This document shows, one piece after another, positions 6,681-38,251 of a stretch of DNA of 64,000 bases. Source of the DNA: Chloroflexota bacterium (GTDB lineage Bacteria > Chloroflexota > Limnocylindria > Limnocylindrales > CSP1-4). Location: the NCBI GenBank assembly GCA_040755495.1, contig JBFMAT010000001.1, positions 101,009 through 165,008 of the forward strand. The letters are read 5' to 3'. Within the stretch, counting starts at the first letter, position 1, and every line of letters starts with the position of its first letter. The notes beneath the pieces are model-generated. The model had not been told where the DNA came from and did no database searches. It was given only the letters and a program-made list of their open reading frames with translations. The translations under genes and the position numbers were made by a program.

Positions 6681-8441
6681 GTGTCCGCCTTCCCCGACCT
6701 CGTCGCGCAGTTCCTCGACGAGCTGTTCGTCCTCCAGCCGGACCTCGCCACGGCCGTCGGCGACCACCGCTACGACGACCGCTGGCCGGACACGAGCGAG
6801 GCCGGCCGGCAGGCGCGGCTGGCGTTCATCGACCGCTGGATGGGGACCTTCGGCGATCTCGACCTGGCCGCGCTGACCCCGGACGAGCGGGTGGACCGGG
6901 ACCTCGTGCTGGGCGAGCTGGCCGCGTTCCGGTTCGGCGAGTCGGAGCTCCGCGAGGACACCTGGGACCCGCTCGGCTGGGTGTACCTGATGGGCTTCTC
7001 GCTGCACCCGCTGCTGGCGCGGGAGTTCGCGCCGCTCCACGTGCGGCTGGCGTCCGTCGCCGGGCGGCTGGAGGGGATCCCGCGCCTCATCGACGACGCC
7101 CGGGCGGTGCTGGGCAGCAACCCGGCCCGGCCGGTGTCCAGGCTCCACGCGGAGATCGCGGCCCAGCGCGTGGGCGGCGTGGCCGGGCTGGCGCGCGAGG
7201 CCGTCGCGCTCGCCGAGGCGGCCGCGCCCGCCGAGGCCGCGGTCGCCGCCCTGCTGCCGCGCCTGCGGGCCGCCGCGGACCGCGCCGCCGAGGCCCTGAC
7301 CGCGATCGGCGAGCACCTGGCGACAGAGGTAGCCCCCAGCGCGACGGGCACGCCGATCCTGGGCCGCGAGCTGTTCGCCGCCAAGCTCCGCCACACGCTC
7401 CGCGACCCCGAGGTGATCCCGGAGGGCATCCTCGCCCGCGCCGAGGCGGAGTACGCCGCGGTCCGCGCCGAGATGGTCCGCATCGCGCGCGAGATCTGGC
7501 CCCGGTGGCGGCCCGGCGAGCCGGCGCCCGACGACGAGGGCGCGCTGGTGCGCGGCACGCTCGATGCCATCACCGCGGAGCACCCCACGGCCGACGGCCT
7601 GGTCGAGTTCTGCCGCCGCGAGCTGGCGGACATCGAGGCCCACTGCCGGGACCGCGGCGTCATCGGGCTCGTGGACGAGCCGCTCGAGATCGACTGGACC
7701 CCGGAGTTCATGCGCTCGTTCGCGGGCGCGATGCTGGACTCGCCGGGACCGCTCGACGTCGGCCAGAAGACGTTCTTCTCGGTGACCCCGGTCCGCCCGC
7801 AGTGGGACGCGGATGAGGTCGAGTCCTATCTGCGGGAGATGAACGCGCGGCAGCTGCGGCTGCTCACGATCCACGAGGCGGTGCCCGGCCACTACCTCCA
7901 GATGGCGTACGCGAACCGCGGCTCGTCGCTGGCCCGGCGCGTGTTCCGGTCCGGGCTGTTCGCGGAGGGCTGGGCGGTCTACGTCACGCAGGTGATGCTG
8001 GACCGCGGCTACGGCGGCGACGACCCCGCCCTGTGGCTCGTCCACTGGAAGTTCTACCTGCGGGCGGTCGTCAACACGATCCTCGACGTCCGGATCCACA
8101 CGCTGGGCATGACGTCCGAGGAGGCGATCGCGCTGATGGTCGACGGCGCGTTCCAGGAGCGCTCCGAGGCCGTGGCCAAGGACGAGCGCGCGCGCCTGTC
8201 GTCCACCCAGCTCGTGACGTACTTCCTGGGCTCGCTCGGGATGTGGGACATCGAGCACGAGGCGCGACGGCGGGCGGCCGTGGCGGCGGGGGCGTCGGCG
8301 GATGCCGTGCCCGCGCCACGGGTGGTCGGCGGCTACCCGGCCACGCCCGGCTTCGACGAGCGCGCCCACCTCGAGGCGGTGATCGCCCACGGCGCCCCGC
8401 CGATCCCGCTCCTGCGCCGGATCCTGCTCGGGGACGTGTAG
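6681..8441 (+). CDS. DUF885 domain-containing protein (metallopeptidase-like HExxPGH motif)
   Basis: ORF 6552..8441 trimmed to the GTG at 6681, which is preceded by GGAGG (6671-6675). Contains the HEAVPGHYLQ motif. Confidence 0.8.
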   Translation: MSAFPDLVAQFLDELFVLQPDLATAVGDHRYDDRWPDTSEAGRQARLAFIDRWMGTFGDLDLAALTPDERVDRDLVLGELAAFRFGESELREDTWDPLGWVYLMGFSLHPLLAREFAPLHVRLASVAGRLEGIPRLIDDARAVLGSNPARPVSRLHAEIAAQRVGGVAGLAREAVALAEAAAPAEAAVAALLPRLRAAADRAAEALTAIGEHLATEVAPSATGTPILGRELFAAKLRHTLRDPEVIPEGILARAEAEYAAVRAEMVRIAREIWPRWRPGEPAPDDEGALVRGTLDAITAEHPTADGLVEFCRRELADIEAHCRDRGVIGLVDEPLEIDWTPEFMRSFAGAMLDSPGPLDVGQKTFFSVTPVRPQWDADEVESYLREMNARQLRLLTIHEAVPGHYLQMAYANRGSSLARRVFRSGLFAEGWAVYVTQVMLDRGYGGDDPALWLVHWKFYLRAVVNTILDVRIHTLGMTSEEAIALMVDGAFQERSEAVAKDERARLSSTQLVTYFLGSLGMWDIEHEARRRAAVAAGASADAVPAPRVVGGYPATPGFDERAHLEAVIAHGAPPIPLLRRILLGDV

Positions 8442-8575
8442 GGATCGCTCGGGCGAGGTCTTCGCTGGTCAACGCCCGAGCCCGCGGGCGTCGCGTCCGC
8501 GCGCGTTCGCGCGAGGCTCGTCTGGCCGCGGGCGCCGAGCCCGCCGCACCCGCGCCGGCCGTGGCACCAGGCGCG

Positions 8576-8761
8576 GCAGTCAGTGGCTGACTATTCCTGC
8601 GACGACGCGGCGTCATCGGCGCCTGCCGTGCCGCCCGAGCCGCCGGCACCATGGCTCGTTGAGCACGGCTGAGCGTGGCCAGCCCTGTTCGGCCCGCATG
8701 GCGCCGCCTCGACCGGCGCGATGTGGCTCCGTAGTCCCCGGAATAGTCAGCGGCTGACTGC
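8576..8761. repeat. MITE-like 186-bp element bounded by 22-bp terminal inverted repeats
   Basis: The left end GCAGTCAGTGGCTGACTATTCC (8576-8597) matches the reverse complement of the right end GGAATAGTCAGCGGCTGACTGC (8740-8761) at 20 of 22 positions. Each end contains a 6-3-6 hairpin, AGTCAG-YGG-CTGACT. Confidence 0.45.
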
Positions 8762-8842
8762 GTGGGCGCCCGCGCCGCTCGGCCATGTCGATCGGGGGAG
8801 GGGCAGCAACGCCAGGCCAGCGGCAGGCGCGGGGCCCGGGAC

Positions 8843-8872
8843 TTGACAGGCAAGTGGTTACTTGCCTATTGT
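8843..8872 (+). promoter_or_regulatory. Promoter plus operator of the ArsR gene (leaderless)
   Basis: TTGACA (8843-8848), an 18-nt spacer, then TATTGT (8867-8872). The spacer is filled exactly by the perfect inverted repeat GGCAAGT-ggtt-ACTTGCC (8849-8866). The ATG at 8879 lies 7 nt after the -10 box. Confidence 0.6.
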
Positions 8873-8878
8873 CGTGGC

Positions 8879-9169
8879 ATGGCTGGTGACGTGTTCCGGG
8901 CACTCGCAGACGGCACTCGCCGCACGATCCTCGACGAGCTCGCGGAGCGTGACGGGCAGACCCTGTTCGAGCTGTGCGCTCGGCTCACCAACCGCCACGG
9001 CCTGGGGTCGACCCGGCAGGCGATCTCGCAGCACCTCGACGTGCTCGAGGCTGCCGGCCTGATCGAGGTCCGCCGCGAGGGCCGCTACCGATTCCACCAC
9101 CTCCGCACCGAGCCGCTGGAGCACCTCGCCGACCGGTGGCTCGACCCTCCAGGGAGCAACGAGCGATGA
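8879..9169 (+). CDS. ArsR/SmtB family transcriptional regulator
   Basis: ORF 8762..9169 trimmed to the ATG at 8879. Contains FRALADGTRRTILDELAERDGQTLFELCARL...STRQAISQHLDVLEAAGLI, a winged-HTH pattern. Confidence 0.85.
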   Translation: MAGDVFRALADGTRRTILDELAERDGQTLFELCARLTNRHGLGSTRQAISQHLDVLEAAGLIEVRREGRYRFHHLRTEPLEHLADRWLDPPGSNER

Positions 9170-9552
9170 AGATCAACCTCGCCAGCGTCCTCGTCGACGA
9201 CCAGGACAAGGCCCTCCGGTTCTACACCGAGATGCTCGGGTTCCAGAAGAAGACCGAGATTCCGCTCGGCGAGCACCGCTGGCTGACCGTGGTGGCGCCG
9301 GACGCGCCGGACGGCGTGGAACTGGTGCTCGAGCCCGATGAGCACCCGGCGGCCAAGCCGTTCAAGGCCGCGCTCGTCGCCGACGGGATTCCGTACACGT
9401 CGTTCGCCGTGGACGATGTCCGTGCGGAGTACGACCGCCTGCGCGCGCTGGGCGTCGTGTTCACGCAGGCCCCGCTCGAGATGGGGCCGGTGACGACCGC
9501 GGTGTTCGACGACACGTGCGGGAACCTGATCCAGATCGCGTCCCACGGCTGA
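9166..9552 (+). CDS. VOC (glyoxalase/bleomycin-resistance/dioxygenase) family protein
   Basis: ORF 8974..9552 trimmed to the ATG at 9166, which overlaps the ArsR stop (ATGA). Contains MKINLASVLVDDQDKALRFYTEMLGFQKK.... Confidence 0.8.
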   Translation: MKINLASVLVDDQDKALRFYTEMLGFQKKTEIPLGEHRWLTVVAPDAPDGVELVLEPDEHPAAKPFKAALVADGIPYTSFAVDDVRAEYDRLRALGVVFTQAPLEMGPVTTAVFDDTCGNLIQIASHG

Positions 9553-9634
9553 GCGCCGGGGCCCCTACCGGCCGCCCGGGCCAAGCGCCCGACGCCGCTG
9601 CCCGCCCCCGGCGCCCGCCCCGCTGCGGACCCGC

Positions 9635-9796
9635 CGTGCGCGGGACGCACGGAATCTCGACGCCTGCGTCGCGATCGTGCGTGGGACGCACGAGGACGGC
9701 CGATCTCGGCCCTCGTGAGCCCGGAATGGCGTCTCGGTCGTGCGTCGGACGCACAGCCACGACAGGCGGGTTGGGAATCCGTGCGTGGGACGCACG
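9635..9796. repeat. Four-hairpin intergenic element, copy B
   Basis: CGTGCG-N5-CGCACG hairpins at 9635-9651, 9676-9692, 9739-9755 and 9780-9796. Loops are CGGGA, TGGGA, TCGGA and TGGGA. Spacing is 41/63/41 nt. Lies between convergent genes. Confidence 0.65.
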
Positions 9797-9890
9797 GCGG
9801 CGAGTGCTCCACGGCGGGCGAGGGTCGCGGCGCGCGGCACTGGCTTGGCGATCCCTGACCGGCGAGCGCCTACTCCGGTCGGCGCCCCTG

Positions 9891-12800
9891 CTAACGAACC
9901 GGCTTCGTGTCGAGGGGGCCGGGCGGCAGGCCGGTGGCCTTCGGGAGCCGCGGCGGCTTCGATGACGCCCCCTTCGGACGAGGCGTTGGTGCCCCGGCGG
10001 CCAGCGCCTCGCGCAGCCGGTCCACGCGGTAGCCGGAGGCCTCGGCCGCTTCGGCGAGTCGGCGCAGCACCACCGACCGCGCCACCGGCCGCCGGACGCG
10101 TGCGGCGGGCGGCGTCAGGACGCGCTCCAGCCGGTCCGTCCAGGCAAGCAGCTCGGCCCACGACTCGCGGTGGAACCATTCGACGCCCTCCCAGGCGTTG
10201 ACCCGGATGAACGCCCGCACGGCAGGATGCGCCAGCCACGCGTCCACGAGCCGGGACGGGAGCGTCGCGGCCGGCCCGCCCAGCGCCGATGGCAACGGCA
10301 GGTCCAGCAGCGTGTGCACGCGCTCGGCCGCCCACCAGGCGGCGGCCTCGTCGAGACCACGGCCGCGCAGGGCATCGGCCACGACCGGCGCCAGGCGCAG
10401 CTCCTCGTACCAGGCCCGGCTCGTCGGCCCGACGAACGCCCCCGCCGGCAGCGACCCGAACGGCGCCAACAGCGTCCACAGGCGCATCGCCGCCTCCTGC
10501 GACGGATCTTCGATGACGTCGACGACGGGCTGGGCCGCCGCCGCCCGCGTCGCGACCAGCTCGACGACCGCGGCCCGGTCGCCGCCGGTGCCCGTGGCCT
10601 CCGCCACGGACGCCACGAGCCGCTCCACCGTCTCACGCGACGGCTCCGCGATCGCCGCCCGGAGCGCGTCGTGCACGGGCGCCAGCTGGAGCTCGCGCAG
10701 CGCTCCCTCCAGCGACGGGACGCCCCGCCCGCCCAGCCGCTCGGCCAGGCGGCGCCACACGCCCGTCGTGTCGTGGATCTCGCGCATCTCCCACAGCACC
10801 CGGGTCTCGTACGCGTGCAGCCGGACGTGCAGCCCGCGCTCGCGGAGCTCGGCCACCGGGCGCAGCGACTCGAGCCCGGACCGCTGCTCGCGCCAGGCGA
10901 GCCAGCGGTCGTCGGCGGGGCCGTCGGCGATGCCCAGGCCATCGGCCAGCGTCCGCCGCTCGAGCCGCTTGGATCCGTCGCCCGCCTTGACGGCGAACGC
11001 CACGGAGTCGCGGATCCAGCCCGACGTCTCGCCGTACCGGTTGTGGTTCACGACCAGCGAGCGCGCCCCGCCCCGCCCGTTCGAGTACGCGAACACGTTC
11101 TCGTCCACGCCCCCGGCGTCGTGGACGAGGTCGTAGAGCAGGAAGTCGTGCGCCTCCGCGAAGTCGCCTCGGCGGTGGAGCAGGGGCACGATCTCGTGCT
11201 CGTGGCGCTCCACCAGCCACGGGTCCGGCTGCTCGTCGAGCGTCGCGCGCCGGAACTCCATGCCGTACTTCTCGGCGAAGCCCTCGAACTGACCGTGGCC
11301 GAACATCGGCAGCCCGGGGAGCGTGGCCAGCAACGTGGCCACTCCGACGTACTTGTCGCCCTTGCCGAACTGCTCGACCGCGGTCTTCTCGTCCGGGTTG
11401 TTCATGAAGTTGACGTAACGCTTGAGGATCTCGGGGTCGAACTCGAGCGTGTCCTTGAGCACCCGCCGGTAGCCCGCGTTGTCCTCGTCGCGGAGCATGT
11501 GCATGAACGCGCTGTTGTACACGCGGTGCATGCCCAGCGTCCGGACGAAGTAGCCCTCGAGCAGCCAGAACGCCTCGGCCAGCAGCAGCGTGTCCGGGAC
11601 CTCCGCGGCGACCCGGTCCACGACCTCGCGCCAGAACTCGACGGGCATCGCCGCCTCGAACTCGGCGGCCGTCATCGTCCCGCGCTCGGCGCGCGACGGG
11701 ATCGCGCCGCCCCCCTCGCCGGGAGCCGGGAACCACAGCCGCCGGACGTGCTTGCGGGCGAGCACCATCGCGGCATCGAAGCGGATGACGGGGAACCGCC
11801 GCGCGACCGCGAGGATGGTCTGGATGACCCGCTCCCGGACCGCCGCCGACGAGAAGTCGAGCTGCGCGGTGTCGTTCCAGGGGAAGCTGGTGCCGTCGTT
11901 GCCGTGGTAGACGTACCGCCGCTCGCCCGTCCAGCGGTCGCGGCGCTCGAACACTACGGCCGCGTCCGTGTTGTCCCAGTAGTGGTCCTCGAGCCGGATC
12001 TCGACCCGGTCGTGGTCGGCCACGTTCTCGCCGCTGAACGTGTAGGCGGGGTAGGGCGGCTCGGGCAGGGACAGGAACCACTCCGGGTGCTCGATGACCC
12101 AGCTGGAATCGATGCCCATGTGGTTGGGGACCATGTCGGATGCCAGCCGGATGCCGCGCGCCCACGCCCGATGGCGAAGGCTCGCCCAGGCATCCTCGCC
12201 GCCGAGGTCGTCCGCGATCCGGTAGTCGTCCAGCGAGTAGGCGGAGGCCGCCGCGTCCGGGTTGCCGCGCCAGGCCTTGATCCGCTGCGACGCCCGGCTG
12301 CGCTGCCACAGCCCGATGAGCCACAGGCCGGTGATCCCCCAGCGCGCCAGCCGGTCCAGCTCTTCGTCCGGGATCGCGTCCAGGGTGCGGACGTCGCGTC
12401 CGTACCGACGCGACAGCTGGTCCAGCCAGACATGGGTGCTCTTCGCGATCATCACCAGGCGCGGCATCCACGCGGAGTCGCTGGAGAACCGCTCCGGCTC
12501 AGCGTCCAGGCCGGTGAGGTCCGGGGCCTCCCCGTGCCCGCCGGCCCCGGGGCCGCCGTCGCCGCCGCCGCCGAACCGGAGGTGGAGCCCGCGCTCCTCC
12601 TGCTCGATCACGTCGAGCGTCAGCAGCATCCGGTCGAGCAGCGCGTCCAGGGCGTCACCCAGCAGCCCGCGCCAGCGCTCGCGCACGTAGCGCAGCTGCC
12701 CGGCGAGCGACGTGGGGTGGGCGCGGGCGGGCGCGCGCAGCAGCTCGACCAGGGTCTCGCCGTCGGGACCGATCGGGGTCAGCGACGCGTGGTACGTCTC

Positions 12801-13424
12801 GAGCGAGGCCACCGCCCCGTTGCGCTCGTCGTCGGGGAGCGGCGAGTCGTCCACGAGATCGCGCATGGGGCGGGCCGCCGGGTTCTCGTTGGCGATCCGG
12901 AGCAGGAGCAGCTCCTCGAGGCGGCCGGGCTCGGGGCGGTCGGCGATGTCCGGGAACTCCTCCGCCACGGCGTCGAGCAGCTCGTCCAGCGCGGGCTCGC
13001 CGAGCGCCTGCTCCACGGCGTCCGCGGCCACGGGCATCGCCGCCGCCGCCTCCAGCTCGCCGGCCTTGTCCACGAGCAGGCGGAAGATCTCGTGGAGCAG
13101 GTCGAGGGCCGCCAGCTCACCCGCCTGGATGCTCGGCTCGCCGGGCCGCCGGGTGGCGTTGACGGCCTGGGCCACGAGCCGCGCCGCTTGGACGTCGGCC
13201 CCGAGCCGCAGGGCCCCGGGCGCCGCCTGTTCGGGGGCGGCGGGGGCGGCCGGGGCGGCCGGGGCGGTGGTCGTGGGGATCGTCCCGGTGCCGGCGGTCG
13301 TCCCGGCGCCGGCGGTCGAGGCTGCGGCGGTGCCCGGCGGGGCGCCCGCGGGAGGCGCCGGGGCGACGACCGCATCGAGCTGGAAGCGGCGGCGCGCGGT
13401 GCGCGAGATGGGCAGCGCTCGCAT
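9891..13424 (-). CDS. Large alpha-amylase (GH13-like) family protein, 1177 aa
   Basis: ORF 9891..13424. GH13 regions can be read: SDMVPNHMG (I), IRFDAAMVLARKH (II), LLLAEAFW (III), NFMNNPDE (IV). Non-catalytic regions of about 330 aa flank the core on each side. Confidence 0.75.
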   Translation of the reverse strand: MRALPISRTARRRFQLDAVVAPAPPAGAPPGTAAASTAGAGTTAGTGTIPTTTAPAAPAAPAAPEQAAPGALRLGADVQAARLVAQAVNATRRPGEPSIQAGELAALDLLHEIFRLLVDKAGELEAAAAMPVAADAVEQALGEPALDELLDAVAEEFPDIADRPEPGRLEELLLLRIANENPAARPMRDLVDDSPLPDDERNGAVASLETYHASLTPIGPDGETLVELLRAPARAHPTSLAGQLRYVRERWRGLLGDALDALLDRMLLTLDVIEQEERGLHLRFGGGGDGGPGAGGHGEAPDLTGLDAEPERFSSDSAWMPRLVMIAKSTHVWLDQLSRRYGRDVRTLDAIPDEELDRLARWGITGLWLIGLWQRSRASQRIKAWRGNPDAAASAYSLDDYRIADDLGGEDAWASLRHRAWARGIRLASDMVPNHMGIDSSWVIEHPEWFLSLPEPPYPAYTFSGENVADHDRVEIRLEDHYWDNTDAAVVFERRDRWTGERRYVYHGNDGTSFPWNDTAQLDFSSAAVRERVIQTILAVARRFPVIRFDAAMVLARKHVRRLWFPAPGEGGGAIPSRAERGTMTAAEFEAAMPVEFWREVVDRVAAEVPDTLLLAEAFWLLEGYFVRTLGMHRVYNSAFMHMLRDEDNAGYRRVLKDTLEFDPEILKRYVNFMNNPDEKTAVEQFGKGDKYVGVATLLATLPGLPMFGHGQFEGFAEKYGMEFRRATLDEQPDPWLVERHEHEIVPLLHRRGDFAEAHDFLLYDLVHDAGGVDENVFAYSNGRGGARSLVVNHNRYGETSGWIRDSVAFAVKAGDGSKRLERRTLADGLGIADGPADDRWLAWREQRSGLESLRPVAELRERGLHVRLHAYETRVLWEMREIHDTTGVWRRLAERLGGRGVPSLEGALRELQLAPVHDALRAAIAEPSRETVERLVASVAEATGTGGDRAAVVELVATRAAAAQPVVDVIEDPSQEAAMRLWTLLAPFGSLPAGAFVGPTSRAWYEELRLAPVVADALRGRGLDEAAAWWAAERVHTLLDLPLPSALGGPAATLPSRLVDAWLAHPAVRAFIRVNAWEGVEWFHRESWAELLAWTDRLERVLTPPAARVRRPVARSVVLRRLAEAAEASGYRVDRLREALAAGAPTPRPKGASSKPPRLPKATGLPPGPLDTKPVR

Positions 13425-13500
13425 GCGGGGAGTGTCGCACGCAAGGCGGGTGTCCGCGGGCCGTTCCGTGTCCCGGCGCCCCGGCCCCCTGGCGCCCCGG

Positions 13501-13650
13501 TAACGGCCAGCGGTTCTACCAGCCCACGACGGCCGGTTTCACTCGCCCAGCGGAGCACCTGGCGCAGGGCACGGCTACCCGCCGCACGGATCGGCTGCTG
13601 GGCGGCGCGAACCACACGCGATGGGCTCGTTCAACCGCTGGGCGGCGCGG
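13501..13650. repeat. Probable degenerate fifth copy (E) of the four-hairpin element
   Basis: Cores GGCCAGCGG (13505-13513), CGCCCAGCGG (13544-13553) and GCTGGGCGGCGCG (13597-13609 and 13637-13649). Centre spacing is 40/52/40 nt. The first two cores are the reverse complement of the last two. Confidence 0.35.
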
Positions 13651-13696: not shown

Positions 13697-14752
13697 TCAG
13701 CCGCCCCCGGCCTCGCGGGCCGCGTCCACCCGCTCGACCGCCCGCCGCAGGAGCTCGAACGCGGCGGGATCGAACTCGTACGTCCACTCCCGGAGCCGAT
13801 CCGGCCGCTCGAACCGGTTCTCGAGACCCAGCGCCATCGCCTCGCGTGACAGCAGCACGAGGTCCGCCTCGCGGTCCACGAGCTCGATCTCCTCGTCCGT
13901 GTGGGCTACCGCCGAGATGATCTCGACCCCGGTGGCCCCCGCGAGCACCAGGACCTCGGCGATGTTCTCCACCCCGCGCGACGACCCGCAGACCAGCCCC
14001 ACCTTCGAGCCCGAGGGCAGGCCGGCGACCTCGTGGACGAGCGACATGTAGCCGGGTCCCACGAGCATCGCCACCACCGGGACGCGCCCCGCGACGTAGG
14101 CCTGCGCCTCGTCGGCGTGGAACGTCGTGGTCGCCACCAGGTCGTAGTGGTAGCGGTCGAGGCGGTCCGGCAGCTCCTCGAGCAGCACCGGGATCGCCTC
14201 CACCCGGTCGGGGAAGGCCTCGTTGATCCGCTCCGCGTCCACGTTGGCGTCGGCGGTCGTGCACTCGGCGAACAGGACGCGAACGTGCGGGCCGGGCCGC
14301 TTGCGCTCGGTGGCGGCGGTGAACGTGGCCTGGGCCACCTCGTCGGGCGTGAACCCCAGCTGGGCGGCGCGGCGCAGCGTCTCGGCGACGATCCCGGCCA
14401 GCGCGTCCGACCCCCGGCGCACGGGCGGCCGGTCCACCACCCGCGTCCCCGCCCCGTGGCGCCCGATCACGTATCCGGCGTCGGCCAGCCGCCGGTACAC
14501 CGCGCGGACGGTGTTGGGGTTGACGCGCAGCACGGCCCCGAGCTCGCGCACGGGTGGCAGCCGGGTCCCGGGCTGGAGCCGGCCCGATTCGATCTGGTAG
14601 GCGAGCTGCCAGTAGATCTGGGTGGAGATCGGGACGTCCGAGTCGCGCTCGATATCGAGCTCGTGATGTCCCGGGACGGTCCCGGTCACGGCGAGCCGTT
14701 CGGCGGGTACGGCAGGGCCATTCCGACTACTTGACACAGTGGAGTAGTCCAA
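13697..14752 (-). CDS. GntR-family transcriptional regulator with atypical ~230-aa C-terminal domain
   Basis: ORF 13697..14752. wHTH pattern: PISTQIYWQLAYQIESGRLQPGTRLPPVRELGAVLRVNPNTVRAVYRRLADAGYVIGRHGAGTRV. The ORF opens with TTG inside the AT-rich promoter region, so the true start is probably further in (GTG at 14737 or 14689). Confidence 0.75.
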   Translation of the reverse strand: MDYSTVSSSRNGPAVPAERLAVTGTVPGHHELDIERDSDVPISTQIYWQLAYQIESGRLQPGTRLPPVRELGAVLRVNPNTVRAVYRRLADAGYVIGRHGAGTRVVDRPPVRRGSDALAGIVAETLRRAAQLGFTPDEVAQATFTAATERKRPGPHVRVLFAECTTADANVDAERINEAFPDRVEAIPVLLEELPDRLDRYHYDLVATTTFHADEAQAYVAGRVPVVAMLVGPGYMSLVHEVAGLPSGSKVGLVCGSSRGVENIAEVLVLAGATGVEIISAVAHTDEEIELVDREADLVLLSREAMALGLENRFERPDRLREWTYEFDPAAFELLRRAVERVDAAREAGGG

Positions 14753-14783
14753 CTATCGTCTTGCTTGGCCTAGTTGACTATAT
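14731..14783 (+). promoter_or_regulatory. AT-rich promoter/operator region between the GntR gene and the micro-protein gene
   Basis: TTGACA (14731-14736), 17 nt, then TATCGT (14754-14759). Two palindromic boxes of GntR-operator style (GT..AC cores) are present: TAGTCCAACTA (14745-14755) and TAGTTGACTA (14771-14780). Confidence 0.4.
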
Positions 14784-14827
14784 CAATCGAAGCGTCCCAC
14801 GCAGACAGGCCCAGAAGCCGAGATCCC

Positions 14828-14962
14828 ATGGAACTCCTCCTCCTCGCCGTCACCATCCTGCTCCTCGGCGCGTTCGCTGTCACGGCGAGCGAGTTCGGCG
14901 TGGACTCGCGGGATGGGTTCGACGACCCGCACCACCCCTCAAACCCCGTCGGGATCGGCTGA
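14828..14962 (+). CDS. 44-aa single-pass membrane micro-protein
   Basis: ORF 14774..14962 trimmed to the ATG at 14828: MELLLLAVTILLLGAFAVTASEFGVDSRDGFDDPHHPSNPVGIG. I recall similar small GVDSR-tailed peptides in actinobacterial genomes, but I cannot verify this. Confidence 0.45.
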   Translation: MELLLLAVTILLLGAFAVTASEFGVDSRDGFDDPHHPSNPVGIG

Positions 14963-15016
14963 TCCCGCCACCACATCCCTGGCGCCGACCCTCCCCCTCC
15001 TTCCGGCGCCAAGAAC

Positions 15017-15046
15017 GACGACCCCCGGGTCACACCGGGGGTCGTT
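15017..15046. terminator. Bidirectional terminator-like hairpin between convergent genes
   Basis: An 11-12 bp GC-rich stem, (G)ACGACCCCCGG / CCGGGGGTCGT(T), with a 6-nt loop GTCACA. There is no U-tract, which is common in high-GC actinobacteria. Confidence 0.4.
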
Positions 15047-15091
15047 GGATTCCCGGGGCCCGCGATCGACGGCCGTGCCCGGCGCCGCGGG

Positions 15092-16498
15092 TCAGGCGTG
15101 GGGCGGTGGCTGCCCGACCTCGCTGAGCGACTGCCGGTAGATCGTCGCGCCGTCGATGCCCAGGTGGGGCGAGCGGAGCGTCGTGAGGTCGTCCACCAGC
15201 CGGCGCTCGAGCGTCGTCCCGGCGAGACGGTCGACCAGCCGCACGGCCCGGGCGGCGGCCCGCAGCACCTGGCGGGTCTCGGGCCGGGCCGGGTCGTCCC
15301 AGTACCAGCCGTCGGAGGCGAACATCGCCAGGCGCCAGCGCTGTGCCTCCATCAGGTCCAGCAGCCGCCGCCGGTCCGCCGCCCCGGCCCGCGCGCCGAG
15401 CGTCCCGGCGGTGAACGCCTCCGGCTCCGCGGCACCGATCACCACGTCCACGTAGCGGTCGCGCGCCGCCCACGGGTCCCCGTCGCCGGGCAGGTCACGG
15501 CCCACCCGGTCCGTGACGGCATCGATCGCCCCCGCCAGCCGGTCGAGGGCGGCCCGCAGCGGCGCCTTCCAGCGCCCGTCCGCCACGTCCGGGCACTCGC
15601 CGGACCAGCGGGCGACCCCGTGGTGGCAGCTCCAGGAGGTCCGGTCGCGGACCCGGATCTCGGGATGCGGGTGGCCCTCGCGCTCGGCGACCGCCGTGGC
15701 GAGGTCCACGACGTCGAAGCCGCGGTCGGGGTGGGCGGGGTCCGGCGCGACCAGGCGCTGGAGGAACAGGTCCCGGAACGGCTGGTGGTGGCCGTACAGC
15801 TCGCCGTCGCTGGCGACCAGCGCCAGCGGCGGGGTCCCGTCGGGCATCCCGACCCCGAGGCGCGGCGCGACGCGCTCGCGCGCGAAGCGGTCCGCGTCGG
15901 CGGTGGTCGAGGGCTCGAACGAGACGGCCGCCGAGAGCTCGCCGTCGTAGAACGCCACGCTCAGGTGCCGCTCCCCGCCGACGTCCACGCGGTATGGGCG
16001 GCGCACGTCCACGTGCGGCACGTCGGCCTGCCACGGGGCGAGGATCGTGGCTCGCACGCCGGCCTCGGCGAGGACCCGGAGCGTCGGCAGGTCCACCGCG
16101 GTCTCGGGCAGCCACAGCCCCGTGGCCCGCCGGCCGAACCGGTGCTCGAAGTCGCGCAGGCCCCACAGGACCTCGGTGCGCCGGTCGTGGAGCGGCGCCA
16201 GGGGCAGGATCGAGTGGTGGAAGGCCTGGGCGATGCCCGTGGCGCCGGCGGTGGCGAACCGCGCCAGGACGTCCGGGGCCTCGGCCGCGAGATAGGCCGC
16301 CAGCGTGGGCCCCAGGTCCCACGACAGCGAGGGCAGCACCGCTCGCTCCGCGTTCGGGCGGTAGCACTCGGCGGTGATCCGCGCGTTCCAGTCCCGGAAC
16401 GGCGCCGCGGACGCGTCGGCGGGCACGTGACCCGAGAACGGGTCCACCCGCCCCGGCTGGTAGAAGTGGGCGTGGACGACGAGACGGCCGCGGCTCAC
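15092..16498 (-). CDS. GH57-type glycoside hydrolase N-domain plus DUF3536 protein
   Basis: ORF 15092..16498. Starts MSRGRLVVHAHFYQPGR (GH57 HxHxYQP signature), followed by ...WLPETAV.... Confidence 0.8.
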   Translation of the reverse strand: MSRGRLVVHAHFYQPGRVDPFSGHVPADASAAPFRDWNARITAECYRPNAERAVLPSLSWDLGPTLAAYLAAEAPDVLARFATAGATGIAQAFHHSILPLAPLHDRRTEVLWGLRDFEHRFGRRATGLWLPETAVDLPTLRVLAEAGVRATILAPWQADVPHVDVRRPYRVDVGGERHLSVAFYDGELSAAVSFEPSTTADADRFARERVAPRLGVGMPDGTPPLALVASDGELYGHHQPFRDLFLQRLVAPDPAHPDRGFDVVDLATAVAEREGHPHPEIRVRDRTSWSCHHGVARWSGECPDVADGRWKAPLRAALDRLAGAIDAVTDRVGRDLPGDGDPWAARDRYVDVVIGAAEPEAFTAGTLGARAGAADRRRLLDLMEAQRWRLAMFASDGWYWDDPARPETRQVLRAAARAVRLVDRLAGTTLERRLVDDLTTLRSPHLGIDGATIYRQSLSEVGQPPPHA

Positions 16499-16529
16499 CC
16501 GAGGCTGCCCCGACGGCGGTCACCCGTGC

Positions 16530-18689
16530 TCACGCGCGTGCCGCGACCTCCTCCGTCGCCCGGTCGCGGGCGACCGTCACGGCCTGGCGGACCGCGAACC
16601 GTCGCGTCTCGCCGGGCGCCAGCCGGACCGGCCACGAGACCAGCAGCCCGCTGCCCTGGTACACGCGCTCGAAGCCGGCCTCGGAGTTCGAGATCGTCTC
16701 GATCGGCGCCCACCAGGCGTCGGCGGCCGGCTCGAACGAGGCCCGCACCGCGACGCCCACCCAGTCGTTGCCGTAGCCGAGGGCGGTGGTCGAGGCGGCC
16801 CGGCCGGCCGCGTCATGGGCCGAGCGCGCGCCGGCGACGTCGTACCACGCGGACGGGTTGCCACCGCCGCCCAAGAGGTGGAGCGACAGCTCGAGGCCCA
16901 GCCGGGTCTCGATCGCGTCGCCGCCGCGGTGGTGGACCTCGAGCTCGATGACCAGCTCCGGGTCCAGGCGACCGCCCAGCATCCGGATCGTCTTGCCCAC
17001 GGTGAGCGGCTGGCCGTGCGCCGTACCGTTCCGTGACAGCGAGACCTGCCCGGGCGCGAGATGGTCCACCGCGAACTCGCCGTCGCGGAAGTCGCCGAGC
17101 TCCACCTCGCCGGCCGTCGCGACGGCCTCGGGGGTCACGTCCGGCGCCAGGAACCGCACCAGGCCCGTCCGGCGCTCGTGGTCGTCGTAGAACAGGCGAC
17201 GGGACAGCCCGGGCTCCTTGACCATCACCAGGTCGTGGATCGAGGCGGGGGCGCCGCCCTCGGCCGCCGGGCCGTCGTCGCCGGGCGGCTTCGCCTCGTG
17301 CGCCAGAAGCGTCTCGTGGTACGCCTCCGGCCGCCGGCGCAGGACGGCGGCCATCGCGTGGCGCGCGGCTCGCAGGTCCCAGCTGCCGATGCCGCCGCCC
17401 TCGGCCGGCTTGACCGTGACCACCTGGCCCGGATCCGCGAGGTAGGCCTCGGTCAGCCCGTCGAGGTCGAGGTCCGTGAGCTGCGCGATGCGCGGCCAGC
17501 CGATGATCGCGTCCGCGGCGTCCTCGGCGGCGATCAGGTGCTCGTACGTGGCGAGGCGCATGTGCGAGATGTAGATCCCGCCGAACAGCCCGTGCCAGTA
17601 GCAGTCGTTGGACTGGCCCCGGTGGAGGTGGTCGAGCGCGCCGGTCTTGTCCGCCCCCGAGGGCATCGACGCGACCTTGGCCGACGTCCGGAGCATCTGC
17701 TTGTGGAGGTCGTTGATCTCGCGGTACTTGACCTGGAAGTTGCGCCAGAACCCGCCGCGCAGCCAGCGCGCCTCGGGACGGCGTTCCGCGACGGCCTGGT
17801 GGAGCAGTGGCGCGAACACGGCGGTCTCGCCGGGCGGCAGCGCCCACTCGCCCATCTCCGCGTACGACGAGGTGGGGACGTACAGCCGGCCGATCGGCGG
17901 CTGGCGGTCCAGCCACTGCGAGGGCGTCACGGTCGTGAGCCAGTCCGCGTTGGCCTCGATCGCCTCGAAGAACCGCTCCACCCAGCGGCCGCCGCCCCAG
18001 CAGTGCTCGTAGGTCGTGGGCCAGGCGCCGAACTTCTCGCCGTCGTCGCCCATCATCCCGACCCGGTCGCCGGCCTCGGTCGCGTGGTCGCGCAGGTAGC
18101 CGATGACGTCCTCCACGGACCCGAACGGGATCCGGTAGCGCAGGCCCTGCTCGGTGCCGAACACGGTCAGCAGCCGGCCCTGGTCATCGGTCGTGTAGGC
18201 GCCCCACAGGTTCTCCTCGGGGATCGCCGCCGCCCGGAAGTGCTGGTCGTCGAGGATCGTCCAGCGGTAGCCGGCCGTGGCCAGCGACGTGGGCAGGTCC
18301 GGCTCCCACACGCGCTCCGCCAGCCAGGCGCCCTGGGGGCGGCGCCCGGTGATGCCCTCGATCACGGCCGCCATGCGGGTCAGCTGGTCGACCCGGTCGA
18401 GCTCGGGGAGCGACGCCAGCACCGGCTCGTACAGGCCGCCGCCGAGCAGCTCCACCTGGCTGCTGGCGACCAGCGACGCCAGCCGGTCCAGGAACTCCGG
18501 CCGCTCGGCCGCCAGCCACTCCAGCAGCGGCCCGGTGTAGTGGAGCGAGAGGCGCACGCCCGGGTGACGCTCGAGGGCCTCGAGCATCGGCAGGTACGCG
18601 TGGTCGAAGACCTCCGCGAACACCCAGCCGAAGTTGCCGACGGGCTGGTGGTTGTGGATGGCCAGCGCCAGCGAGATCCGGGGGGCCAA
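16530..18689 (-). CDS. GH57 family alpha-amylase / 4-alpha-glucanotransferase
   Basis: Last 719 codons of artefactual ORF 16530..23156. TTG start at 18689, with GAGGA 7 nt upstream. Contains LALAIHNHQPVGN, ...WLAERVWEP..., ...DDGEKFGAWP..., ...QSNDCYWHGLFGGIY. Confidence 0.8.
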   Translation of the reverse strand: MAPRISLALAIHNHQPVGNFGWVFAEVFDHAYLPMLEALERHPGVRLSLHYTGPLLEWLAAERPEFLDRLASLVASSQVELLGGGLYEPVLASLPELDRVDQLTRMAAVIEGITGRRPQGAWLAERVWEPDLPTSLATAGYRWTILDDQHFRAAAIPEENLWGAYTTDDQGRLLTVFGTEQGLRYRIPFGSVEDVIGYLRDHATEAGDRVGMMGDDGEKFGAWPTTYEHCWGGGRWVERFFEAIEANADWLTTVTPSQWLDRQPPIGRLYVPTSSYAEMGEWALPPGETAVFAPLLHQAVAERRPEARWLRGGFWRNFQVKYREINDLHKQMLRTSAKVASMPSGADKTGALDHLHRGQSNDCYWHGLFGGIYISHMRLATYEHLIAAEDAADAIIGWPRIAQLTDLDLDGLTEAYLADPGQVVTVKPAEGGGIGSWDLRAARHAMAAVLRRRPEAYHETLLAHEAKPPGDDGPAAEGGAPASIHDLVMVKEPGLSRRLFYDDHERRTGLVRFLAPDVTPEAVATAGEVELGDFRDGEFAVDHLAPGQVSLSRNGTAHGQPLTVGKTIRMLGGRLDPELVIELEVHHRGGDAIETRLGLELSLHLLGGGGNPSAWYDVAGARSAHDAAGRAASTTALGYGNDWVGVAVRASFEPAADAWWAPIETISNSEAGFERVYQGSGLLVSWPVRLAPGETRRFAVRQAVTVARDRATEEVAARA

Positions 18690-18757
18690 CGGTGCGTCCT
18701 CTGGGGGTGGGTGGGTGGTGGGCAGGACCGGGGGGTCGGTCGCGGCGCCCCTGCGGC

Positions 18758-20968
18758 TCAGCCCGTCTCGGCGGGCGCGGCTCGGGGCACGCCGGGCGCG
18801 GTCAGGGGCACGGCGGCGCGCGCCGCCGGGAGGTACAGCCGCTCCACGTACTCGTGGAGCATCCGGGTGGTGGAGAAGCGCCAGATCGTGCTGGCGATGG
18901 AGTTGCGCATGAGCTGCGTCCAGCGGGCCGGGAACCCCTGCGCGTCCCGCTCGTAGTAGGCGGGGACCAGCTCCTGCTCCAGGATCCGGTACAGGTCCTG
19001 GGCATCGGCCCAGTCCTGGGCGCCATCGTCCGGGTTGGTCTCGCGCCCGCCGATCGCCCACCCGTTGTCGCCGGTCCAGCCCTCGTCCCACCAGCCGTCG
19101 AGCACGCTGACGTTGACGATGCCGTTGGCGGCGGCCTTCATGCCCGAGGTGCCGGAGGCTTCGAGCGGGCGCCGGGGGTTGTTGAGCCACACGTCCACGC
19201 CCTGGACGAGGAACCGGGCGATCCGGATGTCGTAGTCCTCGAGGATGAACACCCGGTTGCGGAGCTTGGCGCCCCGCGAACGCCCGAAGATGTCCTGGAT
19301 CACGCCCTGGCCCGGCCGGTCCGCCGGGTGCGCCTTGCCGGCGAAGATGAACTGGACCGGCCGATCCGGGTCCCAGACCAGCCGGGCCAGCCGGTCGTGG
19401 TCCGAGAACAGCAGCGAGGCCCGCTTGTAGGTCGCGAACCGGCGCGCAAAGCCGATCGTGAGGATCGACGGGTCCAGGATCTCCTCGAGCTCCTCGAGCG
19501 TGGACGGCGCCTCGCCGTGACGGGCGAACTGGCTGCGCAGCCGGCCCCGGGCGAAGATCGCGAGCTCCAGCTTCTGGCGCTGGTGCGCCTCCCACAGCTC
19601 GCGCGTGGGCACCTTGTCGATGCGCTCCCAGAACCGGCCCCTGGCCGGCTGGTCGTCCATCCGGTCGAGGTTCGCGTTGGTCCAGCGCTCGAGCGCGTCG
19701 CGCACCGGCTGGCCCACCCACGACGGCGTGTGGACGCCGTTGGTGATGCCCAGGATGTCGTGCGGGGCCACGCCCTGCCAGGTCGCGTTGGCGGTGTGGC
19801 CGTGGAGCTGGGACACCGCGTTGGCGCCCGTCGTGAGCCGGAGCGAGAACGCGGTCATGTCGAACTGCGACGGGTCGCCGTCCACGCCCCGCCCGAGGTC
19901 CAGCACGGTTTGCATCGGCACGCCGCCGGTGCCCGGCCGCCCGTCGCCGTCGAGCAGCGGCGCGGCGACCCGGCGGACGAGGTCGACGTCGAAGCGCTCG
20001 TTGCCGGCAGCGACCGGGGTGTGGATCGTGAACACGCTGTTGCGCCGGATCTCCGGCCACGCTCCCTCGATCGGCGTGCCCGCGGCCACCAGCTCCCGCG
20101 CCCGCTCCGCGAGCAGGAACGCGGAGTGGCCCTCGTTGAGGTGCCACACGGCGGGGTCCAGGCCCAGGGCCCGCAGCGCCCGGACGCCGCCCACGCCCAG
20201 CACGAGCTCCTGGTGCAGGCGCATCTCCCGGCCGCGCACGTAGAGCATGTGGGTGATCGGGCGGTCCGAGTCGTCGTTGTCGGGGACGTCCGTGTCCAGC
20301 AGCAGGACCGGCACCCGCCCGACCTGCACCATCCACACCGCGGCGAACAGCTCGCGGCCGGGCAGCTGCACGCGCACCGTCAGCGGCTGGCCGAGGCGGT
20401 CGAGGGCGCGCAGGATCGGCAGCCGGGCGAGCTCGTAGTCCGGGTAGGCGTGCTCCTGGTGCCCGTCGGCGTCGATCGTCTGGCGGAAGTAGCCCTTGCG
20501 GTACAGGAGCCCCACGCCGACCAGCGGCAGGGCCATGTCCGAGGCCGTCTTCATGTGATCGCCGGCGAGCACGCCGAGGCCGCCCGAGTAGATGCCGAGC
20601 GACTCGTGGAACCCGTACTCCGCGCAGAAGTAGGCGATCGGGCCGTTGAGCTCCTTGCCGTGGTGGCGCGCGAACCAGTGCCCCGTGCCGTTGGCCATGT
20701 ACTCGTCGAACTCGCGGACGATGTCGTCGTACTCGGCGAGGAAGGCGGGGTTGTCCAGGAGCTGGTCCCACTGGACCGGGCCCTGGAGCAGCGGGACGGG
20801 GTTGCGGTAGCGGGCCCAGGCCGCGGCGTCGATCCGCGAGAACAGGATGCGGGTCCGCGGGTGCCAGCTCCACCACAGGTTGTAGGCGAGCCGTCGGAGG
20901 CCCTCGAGGGCGGGCGGCAGGTGGAAGTGCGCGCCGGGCGCGACGGGGACTTGGACGAGGGGCTCCAT
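18758..20968 (-). CDS. glgP: Alpha-glucan phosphorylase (GT35)
   Basis: ORF 18758..20989; the ATG at 20968 is preferred over the GTG at 20989. Contains LAYNLWWSWHP, GGLGVLAGDHMKTASD and TSGMKAAANG (PLP Lys region). Confidence 0.85.
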   Translation of the reverse strand: MEPLVQVPVAPGAHFHLPPALEGLRRLAYNLWWSWHPRTRILFSRIDAAAWARYRNPVPLLQGPVQWDQLLDNPAFLAEYDDIVREFDEYMANGTGHWFARHHGKELNGPIAYFCAEYGFHESLGIYSGGLGVLAGDHMKTASDMALPLVGVGLLYRKGYFRQTIDADGHQEHAYPDYELARLPILRALDRLGQPLTVRVQLPGRELFAAVWMVQVGRVPVLLLDTDVPDNDDSDRPITHMLYVRGREMRLHQELVLGVGGVRALRALGLDPAVWHLNEGHSAFLLAERARELVAAGTPIEGAWPEIRRNSVFTIHTPVAAGNERFDVDLVRRVAAPLLDGDGRPGTGGVPMQTVLDLGRGVDGDPSQFDMTAFSLRLTTGANAVSQLHGHTANATWQGVAPHDILGITNGVHTPSWVGQPVRDALERWTNANLDRMDDQPARGRFWERIDKVPTRELWEAHQRQKLELAIFARGRLRSQFARHGEAPSTLEELEEILDPSILTIGFARRFATYKRASLLFSDHDRLARLVWDPDRPVQFIFAGKAHPADRPGQGVIQDIFGRSRGAKLRNRVFILEDYDIRIARFLVQGVDVWLNNPRRPLEASGTSGMKAAANGIVNVSVLDGWWDEGWTGDNGWAIGGRETNPDDGAQDWADAQDLYRILEQELVPAYYERDAQGFPARWTQLMRNSIASTIWRFSTTRMLHEYVERLYLPAARAAVPLTAPGVPRAAPAETG

Positions 20969-21062
20969 GAGCGGGCAATGATAGCCCACGCGCCGGGCGT
21001 GTGAACCGGTTTAGGCCGCGGCACGGGCCGCGTCTCCGGCCGCTACGATGCGGCGCATGACC

Positions 21063-22541
21063 ATGCGCGTCGCGCTGCTCGCCGCCGAGTGCGAGCCGTG
21101 GGCCAAGACGGGCGGCCTCGCGGACGTGGTGGACGCGCTCGCGCGGGCCCTCGGCCGGCTGCCGGAGGCGGGCACGGAGCTCGCGGCGCCCGTGGACGTG
21201 TTCCTGCCCCGCTACCGGTCCGTGCCCGTCCCCGCCGACGCCACCCGCGAGCCCGTCCTGCGCATCGAGGACCCAGCGGGCGGGGCGCCGATCGAGGTCA
21301 CGATCGTCGACGTCGCGGCGGACGGCTACCGGCTGCGGCTGGTGGACGTGCCGCGCGCCTTCGACCGCGATGGCTTCTACGACCACCCCGACGACCCGTG
21401 GCGGTTCGCCGTCCTGTGCCGCGCGGCGCTGGCCGCGCTGCGGCGGGACGGCACGCCGCTCGACGTCCTGCACGTCCACGACTGGCACACGGGCCCCGCG
21501 CTCCTCGAGCGGGCCCGCGGCGAGGTCGCGGGCGACCCGTTCCTGGCGCGCATGGCGGTCGTCGCGACGCTCCACAACCTCGCCTACCACGGCTGGACGC
21601 CGCTGGCGCAGGTCCAGCAGCTGGGCCTGGTGCCGGGCGAGCCGCTGGCCGGCAGCAACCCCGACGGCATCGACCTCCTGCGCACCGCCATCGAGCGGTC
21701 CGAGATCGTCAACACGGTCTCGCCCGGCTTCGCCCGCGAGGCGCTCACGCCGGCCTTCGGCATGGGCCTCGACGAGGCGCTGCGCGCGAAGGGCGACCGG
21801 TTCCTGGGCATCCTCAACGGCATCGACCCGGCCGTCTGGGATCCCGCGACGGACGCGGCGATCGCGGCGCCGTACTCGCGGGCGTCGCCCGGGGGCAAGG
21901 CGGCCTGCCGGCGCGACCTCCTGGGCCGGCTCGGCTTCGATCCCGACGACGACGGCGCCGTGGCCGGCATGATCGGGCGGATGGACCCGCAGAAGGGGTT
22001 CGACCTGCTTGCCGACGGCGCGCGGGACCTCCTCGCGGCGGGCGTGCGGATCGTCGTCCAGGGCAGCGGCCACGCGTCGCTCGCCGACCCGTTCCGGGCG
22101 CTGGCGGCGGCCAGCCCCGCCCGGGTCGCCCTCATCGAGCGCTTCGACCGGGACATGGCGCGGCGGATCTACGCCGGCGCCGACCTGTTCCTCATGCCGT
22201 CGCGGTTCGAGCCCTGCGGGCAGGGCCAGATGATCGCCCTGCGCTACGGGACGCCGCCCGTGGTGCGGCGGACCGGCGGCCTCGCGGACTCCGTGATCGA
22301 CGCGGACGAGCGGCCGGGCGAGGGGACCGGGTTCGTGTTCGATGCCGCGACGCCGCGGGCGCTGGTGGCGGCCGTCGTGCGGGCGGCGGCGCTGCGGGCC
22401 GCGGGCACGGGCGCGTGGGCCGCGCTCGTGGACCGCGGGATGGCCGTCGACTTCGCCTGGGACACGGGGCCCGCATCGGCGTACCTCGCGGCCTACCGGC
22501 GGGCGGTCGCGATCCGTCGGGCCGAGCGAAGCCGGGGCTAG
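21063..22541 (+). CDS. glgA: Glycogen/starch synthase (GT5, ADP-glucose type)
   Basis: ORF 21048..22541. Starts MRVALLAAECEPWAKTGGLADVV (KTGGL motif), with ...PSRFEPCGQGQM... later. Divergent from glgP. Confidence 0.85.
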   Translation: MRVALLAAECEPWAKTGGLADVVDALARALGRLPEAGTELAAPVDVFLPRYRSVPVPADATREPVLRIEDPAGGAPIEVTIVDVAADGYRLRLVDVPRAFDRDGFYDHPDDPWRFAVLCRAALAALRRDGTPLDVLHVHDWHTGPALLERARGEVAGDPFLARMAVVATLHNLAYHGWTPLAQVQQLGLVPGEPLAGSNPDGIDLLRTAIERSEIVNTVSPGFAREALTPAFGMGLDEALRAKGDRFLGILNGIDPAVWDPATDAAIAAPYSRASPGGKAACRRDLLGRLGFDPDDDGAVAGMIGRMDPQKGFDLLADGARDLLAAGVRIVVQGSGHASLADPFRALAAASPARVALIERFDRDMARRIYAGADLFLMPSRFEPCGQGQMIALRYGTPPVVRRTGGLADSVIDADERPGEGTGFVFDAATPRALVAAVVRAAALRAAGTGAWAALVDRGMAVDFAWDTGPASAYLAAYRRAVAIRRAERSRG

Positions 22542-22647
22542 CGGCACCGAGGCTGGCGGAACCGGGCTCGCCGGGGATGCCCCGGCCGTGCGAGAATCGG
22601 GCCTCGATCCCGACCCACCGCGGCCAGCCCGCCGCCCGGAGGCCACG

Positions 22648-23034
22648 ATGCCGAAGCAGTTCGTCGTCCAGGTGACCAACAAGCCCGGCCAGATGGCCCT
22701 GCTCGCCGAGCAGATGGCCGCCCGCGGCGTCGACCTGCGGGCCATCGGCGGCGGCGGCCTGGGGGAGGTCGGCCACTTCATCATGACCACCGCCGACGAC
22801 GACACCGCGCGCAAGGTCCTCGAGGACGGCGGCTGGACGTTCCTCGAGGGCGAGTCGCTGCTGGCCGAGGTGGACGACCGCCCGGGCGGGATGGCCAAGA
22901 TCGCCCGCGCGCTCGCGGACGCCAACGTCAACGTCCTCGGCCACCTGTTCATCGGCCGGTGGGGGGATCGGGCGACGTTCGCGTTCATCGTCGACGACCC
23001 CGAGAAGGCGCGCCCGATCCTCGAGCGCCGCTGA
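22648..23034 (+). CDS. ACT domain-containing protein (two ACT-like repeats)
   Basis: ORF 22342..23034 trimmed to the ATG at 22648, which has GGAGG upstream. Contains VVQVTNKPGQMALLAEQMAARGVDLRAI and ...LAEVDDRPGGMAKIARALADANVNV. Confidence 0.6.
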   Translation: MPKQFVVQVTNKPGQMALLAEQMAARGVDLRAIGGGGLGEVGHFIMTTADDDTARKVLEDGGWTFLEGESLLAEVDDRPGGMAKIARALADANVNVLGHLFIGRWGDRATFAFIVDDPEKARPILERR

Positions 23035-30200: not shown

Positions 30201-30328
30201 GGCCCGGGGCGGGCGCCGGGTGGTCGCGGCCCCGCCGCCGGTCGCGGCCCGCCGCCGTCGGCGCCCCGCCGGACGCGGCCCGCCGCCGCTGCGTCGCCGA
30301 CCCGCCGCCCCGCCGTCGGCGCCCCGCC

Positions 30329-30476: not shown

Positions 30477-30558
30477 GGGGAGCGGCGCCCGGTGAGCGGC
30501 GACGAGGGGCGGCGACGAGGAGCGGCGCCCGGTGAGCGGCTCCCGCGGCCCACCCAGG

Positions 30559-36588: not shown

Positions 36589-36639
36589 GGCGTGTACCCG
36601 CGCTCGTTCGATGCCGGACGCGTCATCAGGACGCACGCG

Positions 36640-38250: not shown

Positions 38251-38251
38251 G

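Follow-up and report, generated by a model that had tools for sequence, protein, structure and literature searches.

A family of nested palindromic intergenic elements of the REP/REPIN kind, with a fixed four-unit plan, in Limnocylindrales (Chloroflexota)

The locus and element B

In the window, by which we mean the whole stretch of 64,000 nucleotides that was analysed, a glyoxalase/VOC gene (ending at 9552, + strand) and a gene of the alpha-amylase family (9891-13424, - strand, encoding a protein of 1177 aa) converge, and the space between their ends contains a palindromic element which we call B. Here and below, the strands of the genes were assigned by third-position GC and Pfam. Element B is composed of four short hairpin units (H1 to H4) arranged on a plan of 17/24/17/46/17/24/17 nt:

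9635-9796, + strand: element B (the focal copy), 162 nt
9635-9651, + strand: unit H1 of B, CGTGCGCGGGACGCACG
9676-9692, + strand: unit H2 of B, CGTGCGTGGGACGCACG
9739-9755, + strand: unit H3 of B, CGTGCGTCGGACGCACA
9780-9796, + strand: unit H4 of B, CGTGCGTGGGACGCACG, the same letters as H2

An earlier sequence-only reading of this DNA had described four hairpins of the form CGTGCG-N5-CGCACG at these positions, with centres 41, 63 and 41 nt apart, and this description was confirmed. Unit H3 ends in A and therefore has 5 bp and a mismatch in place of the 6-bp stem, and the hairpins can equally be read as 7-bp stems with loops of 3 nt. The resemblance that had been noticed between the H1-H2 spacer and the reverse complement of the H3-H4 spacer is also real, with 13 Watson-Crick and 4 G-T pairs among 24 positions in strict register. 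The fold of B is one long hairpin (-107.3 kcal/mol, z -4.0 on the + strand), and since the - strand gives z -5.9 both strands fold about equally well.

The amylase gene belongs to a conserved glycogen-metabolism cluster (window 13697-23000) which includes a GntR regulator, two GH57 genes, a DUF3417 phosphorylase and a glycogen synthase, and which is syntenic in three related contigs (L001-L003, see below).

Other copies and the shared plan

The layout of B had been reported to recur at four other places in the window. It does recur there, in elements A, C, D and E, and the plan proved more regular than first described (17/23/17/34-36/17/23-25/17 nt). A looser, probable relative, F, is counted here as a sixth copy:

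1606-1755, + strand: element A, 150 nt, units GCCTGC-TGG-GCAGGC
8576-8761, + strand: element F, the looser probable relative, 186 nt, a long hairpin
13500-13648, + strand: element E, 149 nt, units CCGC-TGG-GCGG
30328-30477, + strand: element C, 150 nt, units GGTCGC-TGG-GCGACC
63701-63850, + strand: element D, 150 nt, a paralogue of C

Element A is found between a DUF3788 gene (ending at 1425, + strand) and a lipoprotein-like ORF (starting at 1943, + strand), and element E between the GntR gene (ending at 13697, - strand) and the start of the amylase gene (13424, - strand). Element C lies between the convergent genes for a DUF4395 protein (ending at 30200, + strand) and an ECF-transporter ATPase (ending at 30559, - strand), and D between an ORF on the + strand (ending at 63586) and one on the - strand (third-position GC 0.97, ending at 63885). 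Element F, which keeps only the terminal units (AGTCAG-TGG/CGG-CTGACT; fold z -4.5), is placed between a DUF885 gene (ending at 8441) and the promoter of an operon with an ArsR-type regulator and VOC genes. This promoter, strong and sigma-70-like (TTGACA-18 nt-TATTGT, 8843-8872), begins about 80 nt after the end of F and overlaps a perfect palindrome, AGGCAAGT-GGTT-ACTTGCCT, which is probably the operator of the ArsR-type regulator itself.

Each element is a nested palindrome, in which four copies of one 17-nt palindrome lie within a long inverted repeat whose segments have fixed lengths. The claim that the stems are specific to each copy holds in so far as the arms differ between elements while their pairing is kept (arm identity 0.37-0.52 between elements, against 0.96 within A and within B), and fails for C and D, which share their stems and are paralogues (73% identity over 194 nt; hairpin identity 0.81). 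Arms and spacers of the different families could not be aligned with one another, whereas the 3-nt centre of the unit is constant, being in all of them TGG, a triplet one step away (CGG, GGG, TGA) or the complement. The loops had been called mostly NGG on the + strand, and in agreement with this 16 of the 20 units carry TGG, CGG, GGG or TGA; the other four have loops of the complementary type (CCA, CCG, TCA) and all of these are in the left half, as in E, where the left-half loops are CCA. This confinement to the left half could reflect a replication-strand or transcription bias, which with about six events is suggestive at best. The units that depart from perfect inverted symmetry are all G-rich on the + strand.

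Two further readings, based on short motifs, were rejected. GGA loops of the CsrA type are present in A and B only, and an 8-mer common to the middles of A and B is not kept in their orthologues.

The whole-element hairpin

Folding of each element gives one long imperfect hairpin, the z-scores ranging from -2.5 to -5.9. Since B could not be aligned with the others by MAFFT, it was analysed separately from the group of A, C, D and E. For this group, aligned in register with two orthologues, RNAalifold also predicts the long hairpin, in which H1 pairs with H4, spacer with spacer and H2 with H3. In this structure 85% of the cells are paired, as compared with 28-43% in slid controls and 74% for the four local hairpins alone, and changes on both sides are seen in 27 of the 49 pairs. 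The spacers thus covary as well, which makes the element more than a row of four hairpins, and the dominant conserved structure is one hairpin of the whole element, of about 150 nt, which describes it better than four separate hairpins do. Mismatches of the G-T and A-C types number 7 and 21, respectively, in the local stems and 27 and 31 in the long stem, with no consistent strand bias. Therefore nothing in the pairing points specifically to RNA over DNA.

Recurrence beyond chance

The window has a G+C content of 72-77%, and 52 single hairpins with 6-bp stems occur in it, so that one hairpin alone means nothing in this DNA. A strict scan, which required four hairpins at the family spacings and with similar arms, gave three matches in the window (A, B and C) against a mean of 0.15 in 20 shuffled sequences. 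When the scan was made slightly laxer and applied to 1.08 Mb of distant amylase loci, taken as a negative control from metagenome contigs (mostly 45-60% identical to the amylase query), no match was found. A relaxed hairpin scan performed no better than chance, with 60 matches against about 50 in shuffled sequences.

Two covariance models, R1 and R2, were also used. R1, built from A, C, D and E, recovers two copies on which it was not trained (those in L003 and L205, scores below), does not recognise B and, like R2, misses F. In a scan of genome contigs for paired GTGCG-N5-CGCAC hairpins, the matches listed include unrelated REPs of Pseudomonas, cyanobacteria, Planctomycetota and others, and one Limnocylindrales locus. 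Such paired hairpins are, among the matches listed, common features of REPs in other phyla, which underlines the analogy with REPs. The Limnocylindrales match (L070, 1438-1580, from another MAG of this order and at a different locus) has two to three hairpins resembling those of B, GTGCG-TCACC-CGCAC and CGTGCG-TCCGA-CGCAC, which are spaced by 75 and 50 nt. It has no family plan and scores 19.5 bits with R2 (E 0.08), and may be a remote or decayed relative.

Orthologous sites in related genomes

Contigs of related organisms were gathered through the proteins flanking the elements, and the sequence compared within the clade amounts to about 200 kb in total. The amylase of the window has a 100% identical counterpart in a MAG labelled Chloroflexota, and the close relatives found by the amylase are labelled Candidatus Limnocylindrales or RBG_16_72_14. 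One further entry, L125, is the same contig as L001. The state of the sites was as follows:

L001 (RBG_16_72_14; amylase 87% identical): A, B and E at the same sites
L123 (amylase 84%): B present, E absent
L124 (amylase 84%): B present in changed form, E absent
L003 (amylase 85%): a degenerate A only, 42.6 bits with R1
L002 (amylase 81%): no elements
L205 (ECF ATPase 93%): C present, 108 bits with R1
L206 (ECF ATPase 93%): C site empty, a 37-nt spacer with a plain hairpin

Element B therefore has orthologues in three of these contigs (L001, L123 and L124) and is absent in L002 and L003, and E is absent in L123, L124, L003 and L002. The boundaries of the E insertion cannot be defined, as the intergenic DNA of the relatives is unalignable there. 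The orthologue of A in L001 is about 88% identical. In the hairpin units the orthologues reach identities of 0.90-0.96 for A and B, 0.77 for E and 0.76 for B in L124, and in the spacers 0.90 for A and 0.87 for E, whereas the flanks (80 nt) are at 0.55-0.67, no better than the unrelated flanks of C and D (0.63). The conservation of the units at the same sites amid unalignable flanks indicates that the elements are old, retained and constrained, and yet close relatives differ in whether they have them.

At the empty C site of L206, the 37-nt spacer between the convergent genes (1519-1555) is a simple hairpin, GCAGGCC...GGCCTGC. The 150-nt element thus takes the place of an ordinary hairpin between genes.

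GC-rich tandem repeats directly adjoin several elements or are found within the equivalent spacers of relatives (window 30223-30327 and 30478-30545; L124 5400-5560; L003 9862-9990). The repeat beside C is GAGCGGCGCCCGGTGAGCGGCGACGAGG and that beside B in L124 is GCCGTGCTCGGTCGCGGTGCC, of about 21 nt. These flanks change much faster than the elements do.

Copying of the unit and concerted change

Elements C and D are paralogues lying 33 kb apart, and their similarity starts at the first base of H1 and stops at the last base of H4. Outside 30328-30477 the similarity of the flanks is at background, and no target duplication was found when the C and D boundaries were compared. Because the similarity ends exactly at the boundaries of the element, a discrete unit of 150 nt was copied at least once. 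The family grew by the copying of whole units to new intergenic sites, with C and D as one such pair, and once placed the copies persist at their sites for long periods.

The changed B of L124 reveals a further process. There GGTGCA...CGCACC replaces CGTGCG...CGCACG, with G6>A in all four units and C1>G together with its partner change G17>C in three of the four. Three changes common to at least three of the four units were not obtained in any of 100,000 simulations in which the same number of changes was placed at random. The four short palindromes of one copy therefore change together, that is, there is concerted evolution within the element. A further sign is seen in A, where H1 of the window copy equals H3, loop included, except for the first base, and where H1 of the L001 copy has the loop of H2 of the window copy; such exchange of loops is the pattern expected from conversion between units.

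Quasi-palindromes are known to mutate by templated correction (Ripley; Lovett), which would alter both partners of a pair with no need for selection on RNA. The four palindromes may thus be kept alike by templated repair or by gene conversion among themselves. Consequently the proposal that the stems co-vary between copies needs to be divided: the covariation is real, as pairing is kept while stems differ, but it is not evidence for a functional RNA, since in L124 three or all four of the hairpins have acquired the same changes in parallel, and it cannot be read as selection on RNA structure. In the series of B orthologues nature offers a clear case of repeats evolving in concert within an element of 160 nt, and the case carries a practical warning, namely that covariation in palindromic repeats can arise by templated conversion and should not be scored as evidence for functional RNA.

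Gene context and a possible role at 3' ends

As had been stated from the sequence, A, B, C and D are each preceded by the end of a gene encoded on the + strand, and three of the five first copies (B, C and D) are situated between convergent genes. Element A lies between two genes on the + strand, E between two on the - strand, and F is likewise between co-directional genes. All six copies follow a stop codon and none is found between divergent genes. The genes adjoining the elements are unrelated housekeeping genes.

No T-run follows any of the elements, and a terminator scan of 8400-10000 found no intrinsic terminator at B or F. A role as terminator would therefore require one of the tail-less kind. 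The suggestion of a structured 3'-UTR or bidirectional terminator is thus favoured by the position of the elements and disfavoured by the missing T-run. By their placement downstream of genes, the elements would give read-through transcripts from either strand a hairpin of about 70 bp. On the model of REP/BIME (PMC3733652, PMC8266576), ERIC and Correia elements, this hairpin would stop transcription or block 3' exonucleases, so insulating neighbouring genes which are often convergent. On this analogy, a transcription stop or a barrier to 3' exonucleases would be the most likely effect at the level of the host.

Comparison with known families

The sequence-only reading could match the element to no named repeat or Rfam family, and for Rfam this was borne out, as a tRNA alone reaches its gathering score in the window. 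The elements do not reach the gathering score of any family, including Chloroflexi-1, ScRE and the CRISPR repeats. The best match in B is CRISPR-DR29 with 19.5 bits (E 0.11), where 39 would be required, and the best in C has E 5.5. A CRISPR repeat was rejected on this E value and because there is no array. An integron attC site was also rejected: C and D have ACCCAAC after H1 with no matching GTTRRRY at the other end, and the neighbours are syntenic housekeeping genes, not cassettes. With regard to MITEs, which have terminal inverted repeats and a target-site duplication, no direct repeat was found at the boundaries of C and D, and the terminal units owe their inverted-repeat character solely to being palindromes.

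The ERIC/IRU and the Neisseria Correia elements are similar in being imperfect palindromes of 100-160 nt which are intergenic, transcribed and able to form long hairpins. Those elements affect the processing and stability of transcripts. They differ from the present family in that their primary sequence is conserved across copies, and the Correia elements have terminal inverted repeats and TA duplications, whereas here the sequence varies by copy, with nothing constant but the plan and the loop triplet.

Another close resemblance is to the REP and BIME sequences of Enterobacteria and Stenotrophomonas, which also consist of palindromic units with linkers of 20-100 nt and for which functions in termination and in the stability of mRNA have been proposed (PMC8266576, PMC3733652). 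The REP of S. maltophilia is a perfect palindrome of 16 nt interrupted by 3 nt, a geometry which is nearly that of the units described here (PMC8266576, PMC3733652). RAYT-associated REPs are short extragenic palindromes of 20-50 nt and the present units, with a 7-bp stem and a 3-nt loop, are of this type, although at 17 nt they are slightly under the usual range. The defining tetranucleotide GTAG or CGTC at the foot of the stem is missing: in the flanks of all 22 units, only H4 of A has GTAG at the 5' foot, and its L001 orthologue has GTAC. Many near-identical copies, another mark of REPs, were not found within the 64 kb, where only C and D are alike. Moreover BIMEs alternate REPs with inverted REPs in variable number and often in tandem arrays, whereas here both the number (four) and the spacing are fixed; the left and right halves are inverted as wholes, yet in B and C all four loops have the same orientation. 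The notion of a REP/BIME-like family therefore stands as regards structured intergenic elements of that kind and falls short as regards the tag and the near-identical copies in the window.

REPINs, known from Pseudomonas fluorescens and others, are likewise short palindromes nested in a longer inverted repeat that makes one hairpin, and they are intergenic, vertically inherited, long kept at orthologous sites and without target duplication (PMC3116915, PMC3337134). Unlike REPINs, the present elements have four units instead of two, loops of the same orientation in B and C, and no GTAG tag; furthermore the copies compared within the window are highly diverged, whereas those of REPINs are clustered round a master sequence. 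Within the Chloroflexi a REP family has been reported in Thermomicrobium roseum, GTAG-23, which is GTAG-tagged and forms large blocks at few loci (PMC3733652). It shares with our elements the phylum, the GC-richness and the association of small palindromes (PMC3733652), but the elements described here are dispersed singly and are untagged.

This family is real, was previously undescribed and is of the REP/REPIN kind, with an unusual fixed plan of four units and clear concerted evolution.

A literature search found no paper on repeats in the class Limnocylindria, whose members are abundant and uncultured. As the family shows, REP-like nested palindromes exist in this class without the hallmarks of REPs, and their four-unit plan and loop triplet persist while the stems turn over.

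Interpretation and alternative explanations

Taking these results together, and leaning on the analogy with known elements, we suggest with about even confidence that this is a new, lineage-specific family of REP/BIME/REPIN-like non-coding repeats of about 150 nt in Limnocylindrales (Chloroflexota), probably acting as a hairpin at the 3' ends of genes. The presence and absence of elements among close relatives, the discrete 150-nt copy unit shared by C and D without target duplication, the concerted change without a strand signal and the wide occurrence of REP-like hairpin pairs in other phyla (among the matches listed) would all suit palindromic DNA that is selfish or neutral and has no host function. 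Such DNA would be spread by a possibly HUH/RAYT-like enzyme, kept palindromic and uniform within each copy by nothing more than templated mutation and gene conversion, and tolerated downstream of genes as the least harmful place. We consider this rather unlikely, since orthologous units are 77-96% identical while the surrounding intergenic DNA is unalignable, since conversion explains the uniformity within a copy but neither the conservation of the spacers in A and E nor the TGG-type loop in all families, and since no guide-like GTAG/CGTC tag is present.

The missing strand signal is also compatible with an array of protein-binding sites acting as DNA, in which the four identical palindromes of 17 bp, all facing the same side of the helix, would attract a protein that works as a dimer or tetramer (a nucleoid protein, gyrase or a regulator) or would be extruded as cruciforms. 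The centre spacings of 40-41, 51-53 or 63, and 40-42 nt approximate to 4, 5 or 6, and 4 helical turns, and the units are perfect or near-perfect palindromes of which the four in each element are kept identical. Nevertheless the arms differ from element to element with only the 3-nt centre in common, so one sequence-specific protein cannot bind them all; the complementary spacers would have no role, and no element is placed in a divergent promoter region, all of which makes such an array improbable. The conserved structure with its covariation, the constant loop triplet and the fact that E and F not only follow genes but also precede others could be taken to mean that each element is a separate regulatory RNA which works with a ligand or a protein, whether in cis, as part of a 3'-UTR or leader, or as the product of a small RNA gene. 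This we regard as very improbable indeed: the two strands have the same structure, outside the loops no unpaired blocks are conserved, the neighbouring genes are unrelated, Rfam gave no match, and no promoter or terminator signal is tied to the elements themselves.

Beside the preferred reading of a REP-like repeat family with a 3'-end role, we offer one bolder idea, to which we give little credence. The elements might be recognised by shape, an enzyme or binding protein reading the 7-bp hairpin and TGG-type triloop in the fixed four-unit frame in the way that integron integrases read the structure of attC. If this were true, the stem sequence of each copy could drift while its four units stay identical, the four units would have to change in parallel for the element to function, instead of doing so as a side effect of repair, and Chloroflexota would possess DNA elements of a novel sort, mobile or regulatory, that are defined by their structure.

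Other repeats in the window

Two intergenic arrays unrelated to the hairpin family were observed. One is a tandem array of about six copies of an 18-19-nt unit, GTCGCGCCGCGGGACGCC (41897-42006), and in the other three to four copies of CGCGCCTGCGCCCTCGTCC precede two of CGCGCGCCCCGCGCCCGGAG (52800-52920). An intergenic structure of a different kind, downstream of a gene ending at 41632, is an inverted repeat (41708-41888) with arms of 42 nt which are 74% complementary and with two direct copies of GCGTGAGATCGCGCA inside. Finally, two adjoining stretches of about 1.6 kb each (36639-39588) have a mutual identity of 82-83% and look like a tandem gene duplication on the - strand.
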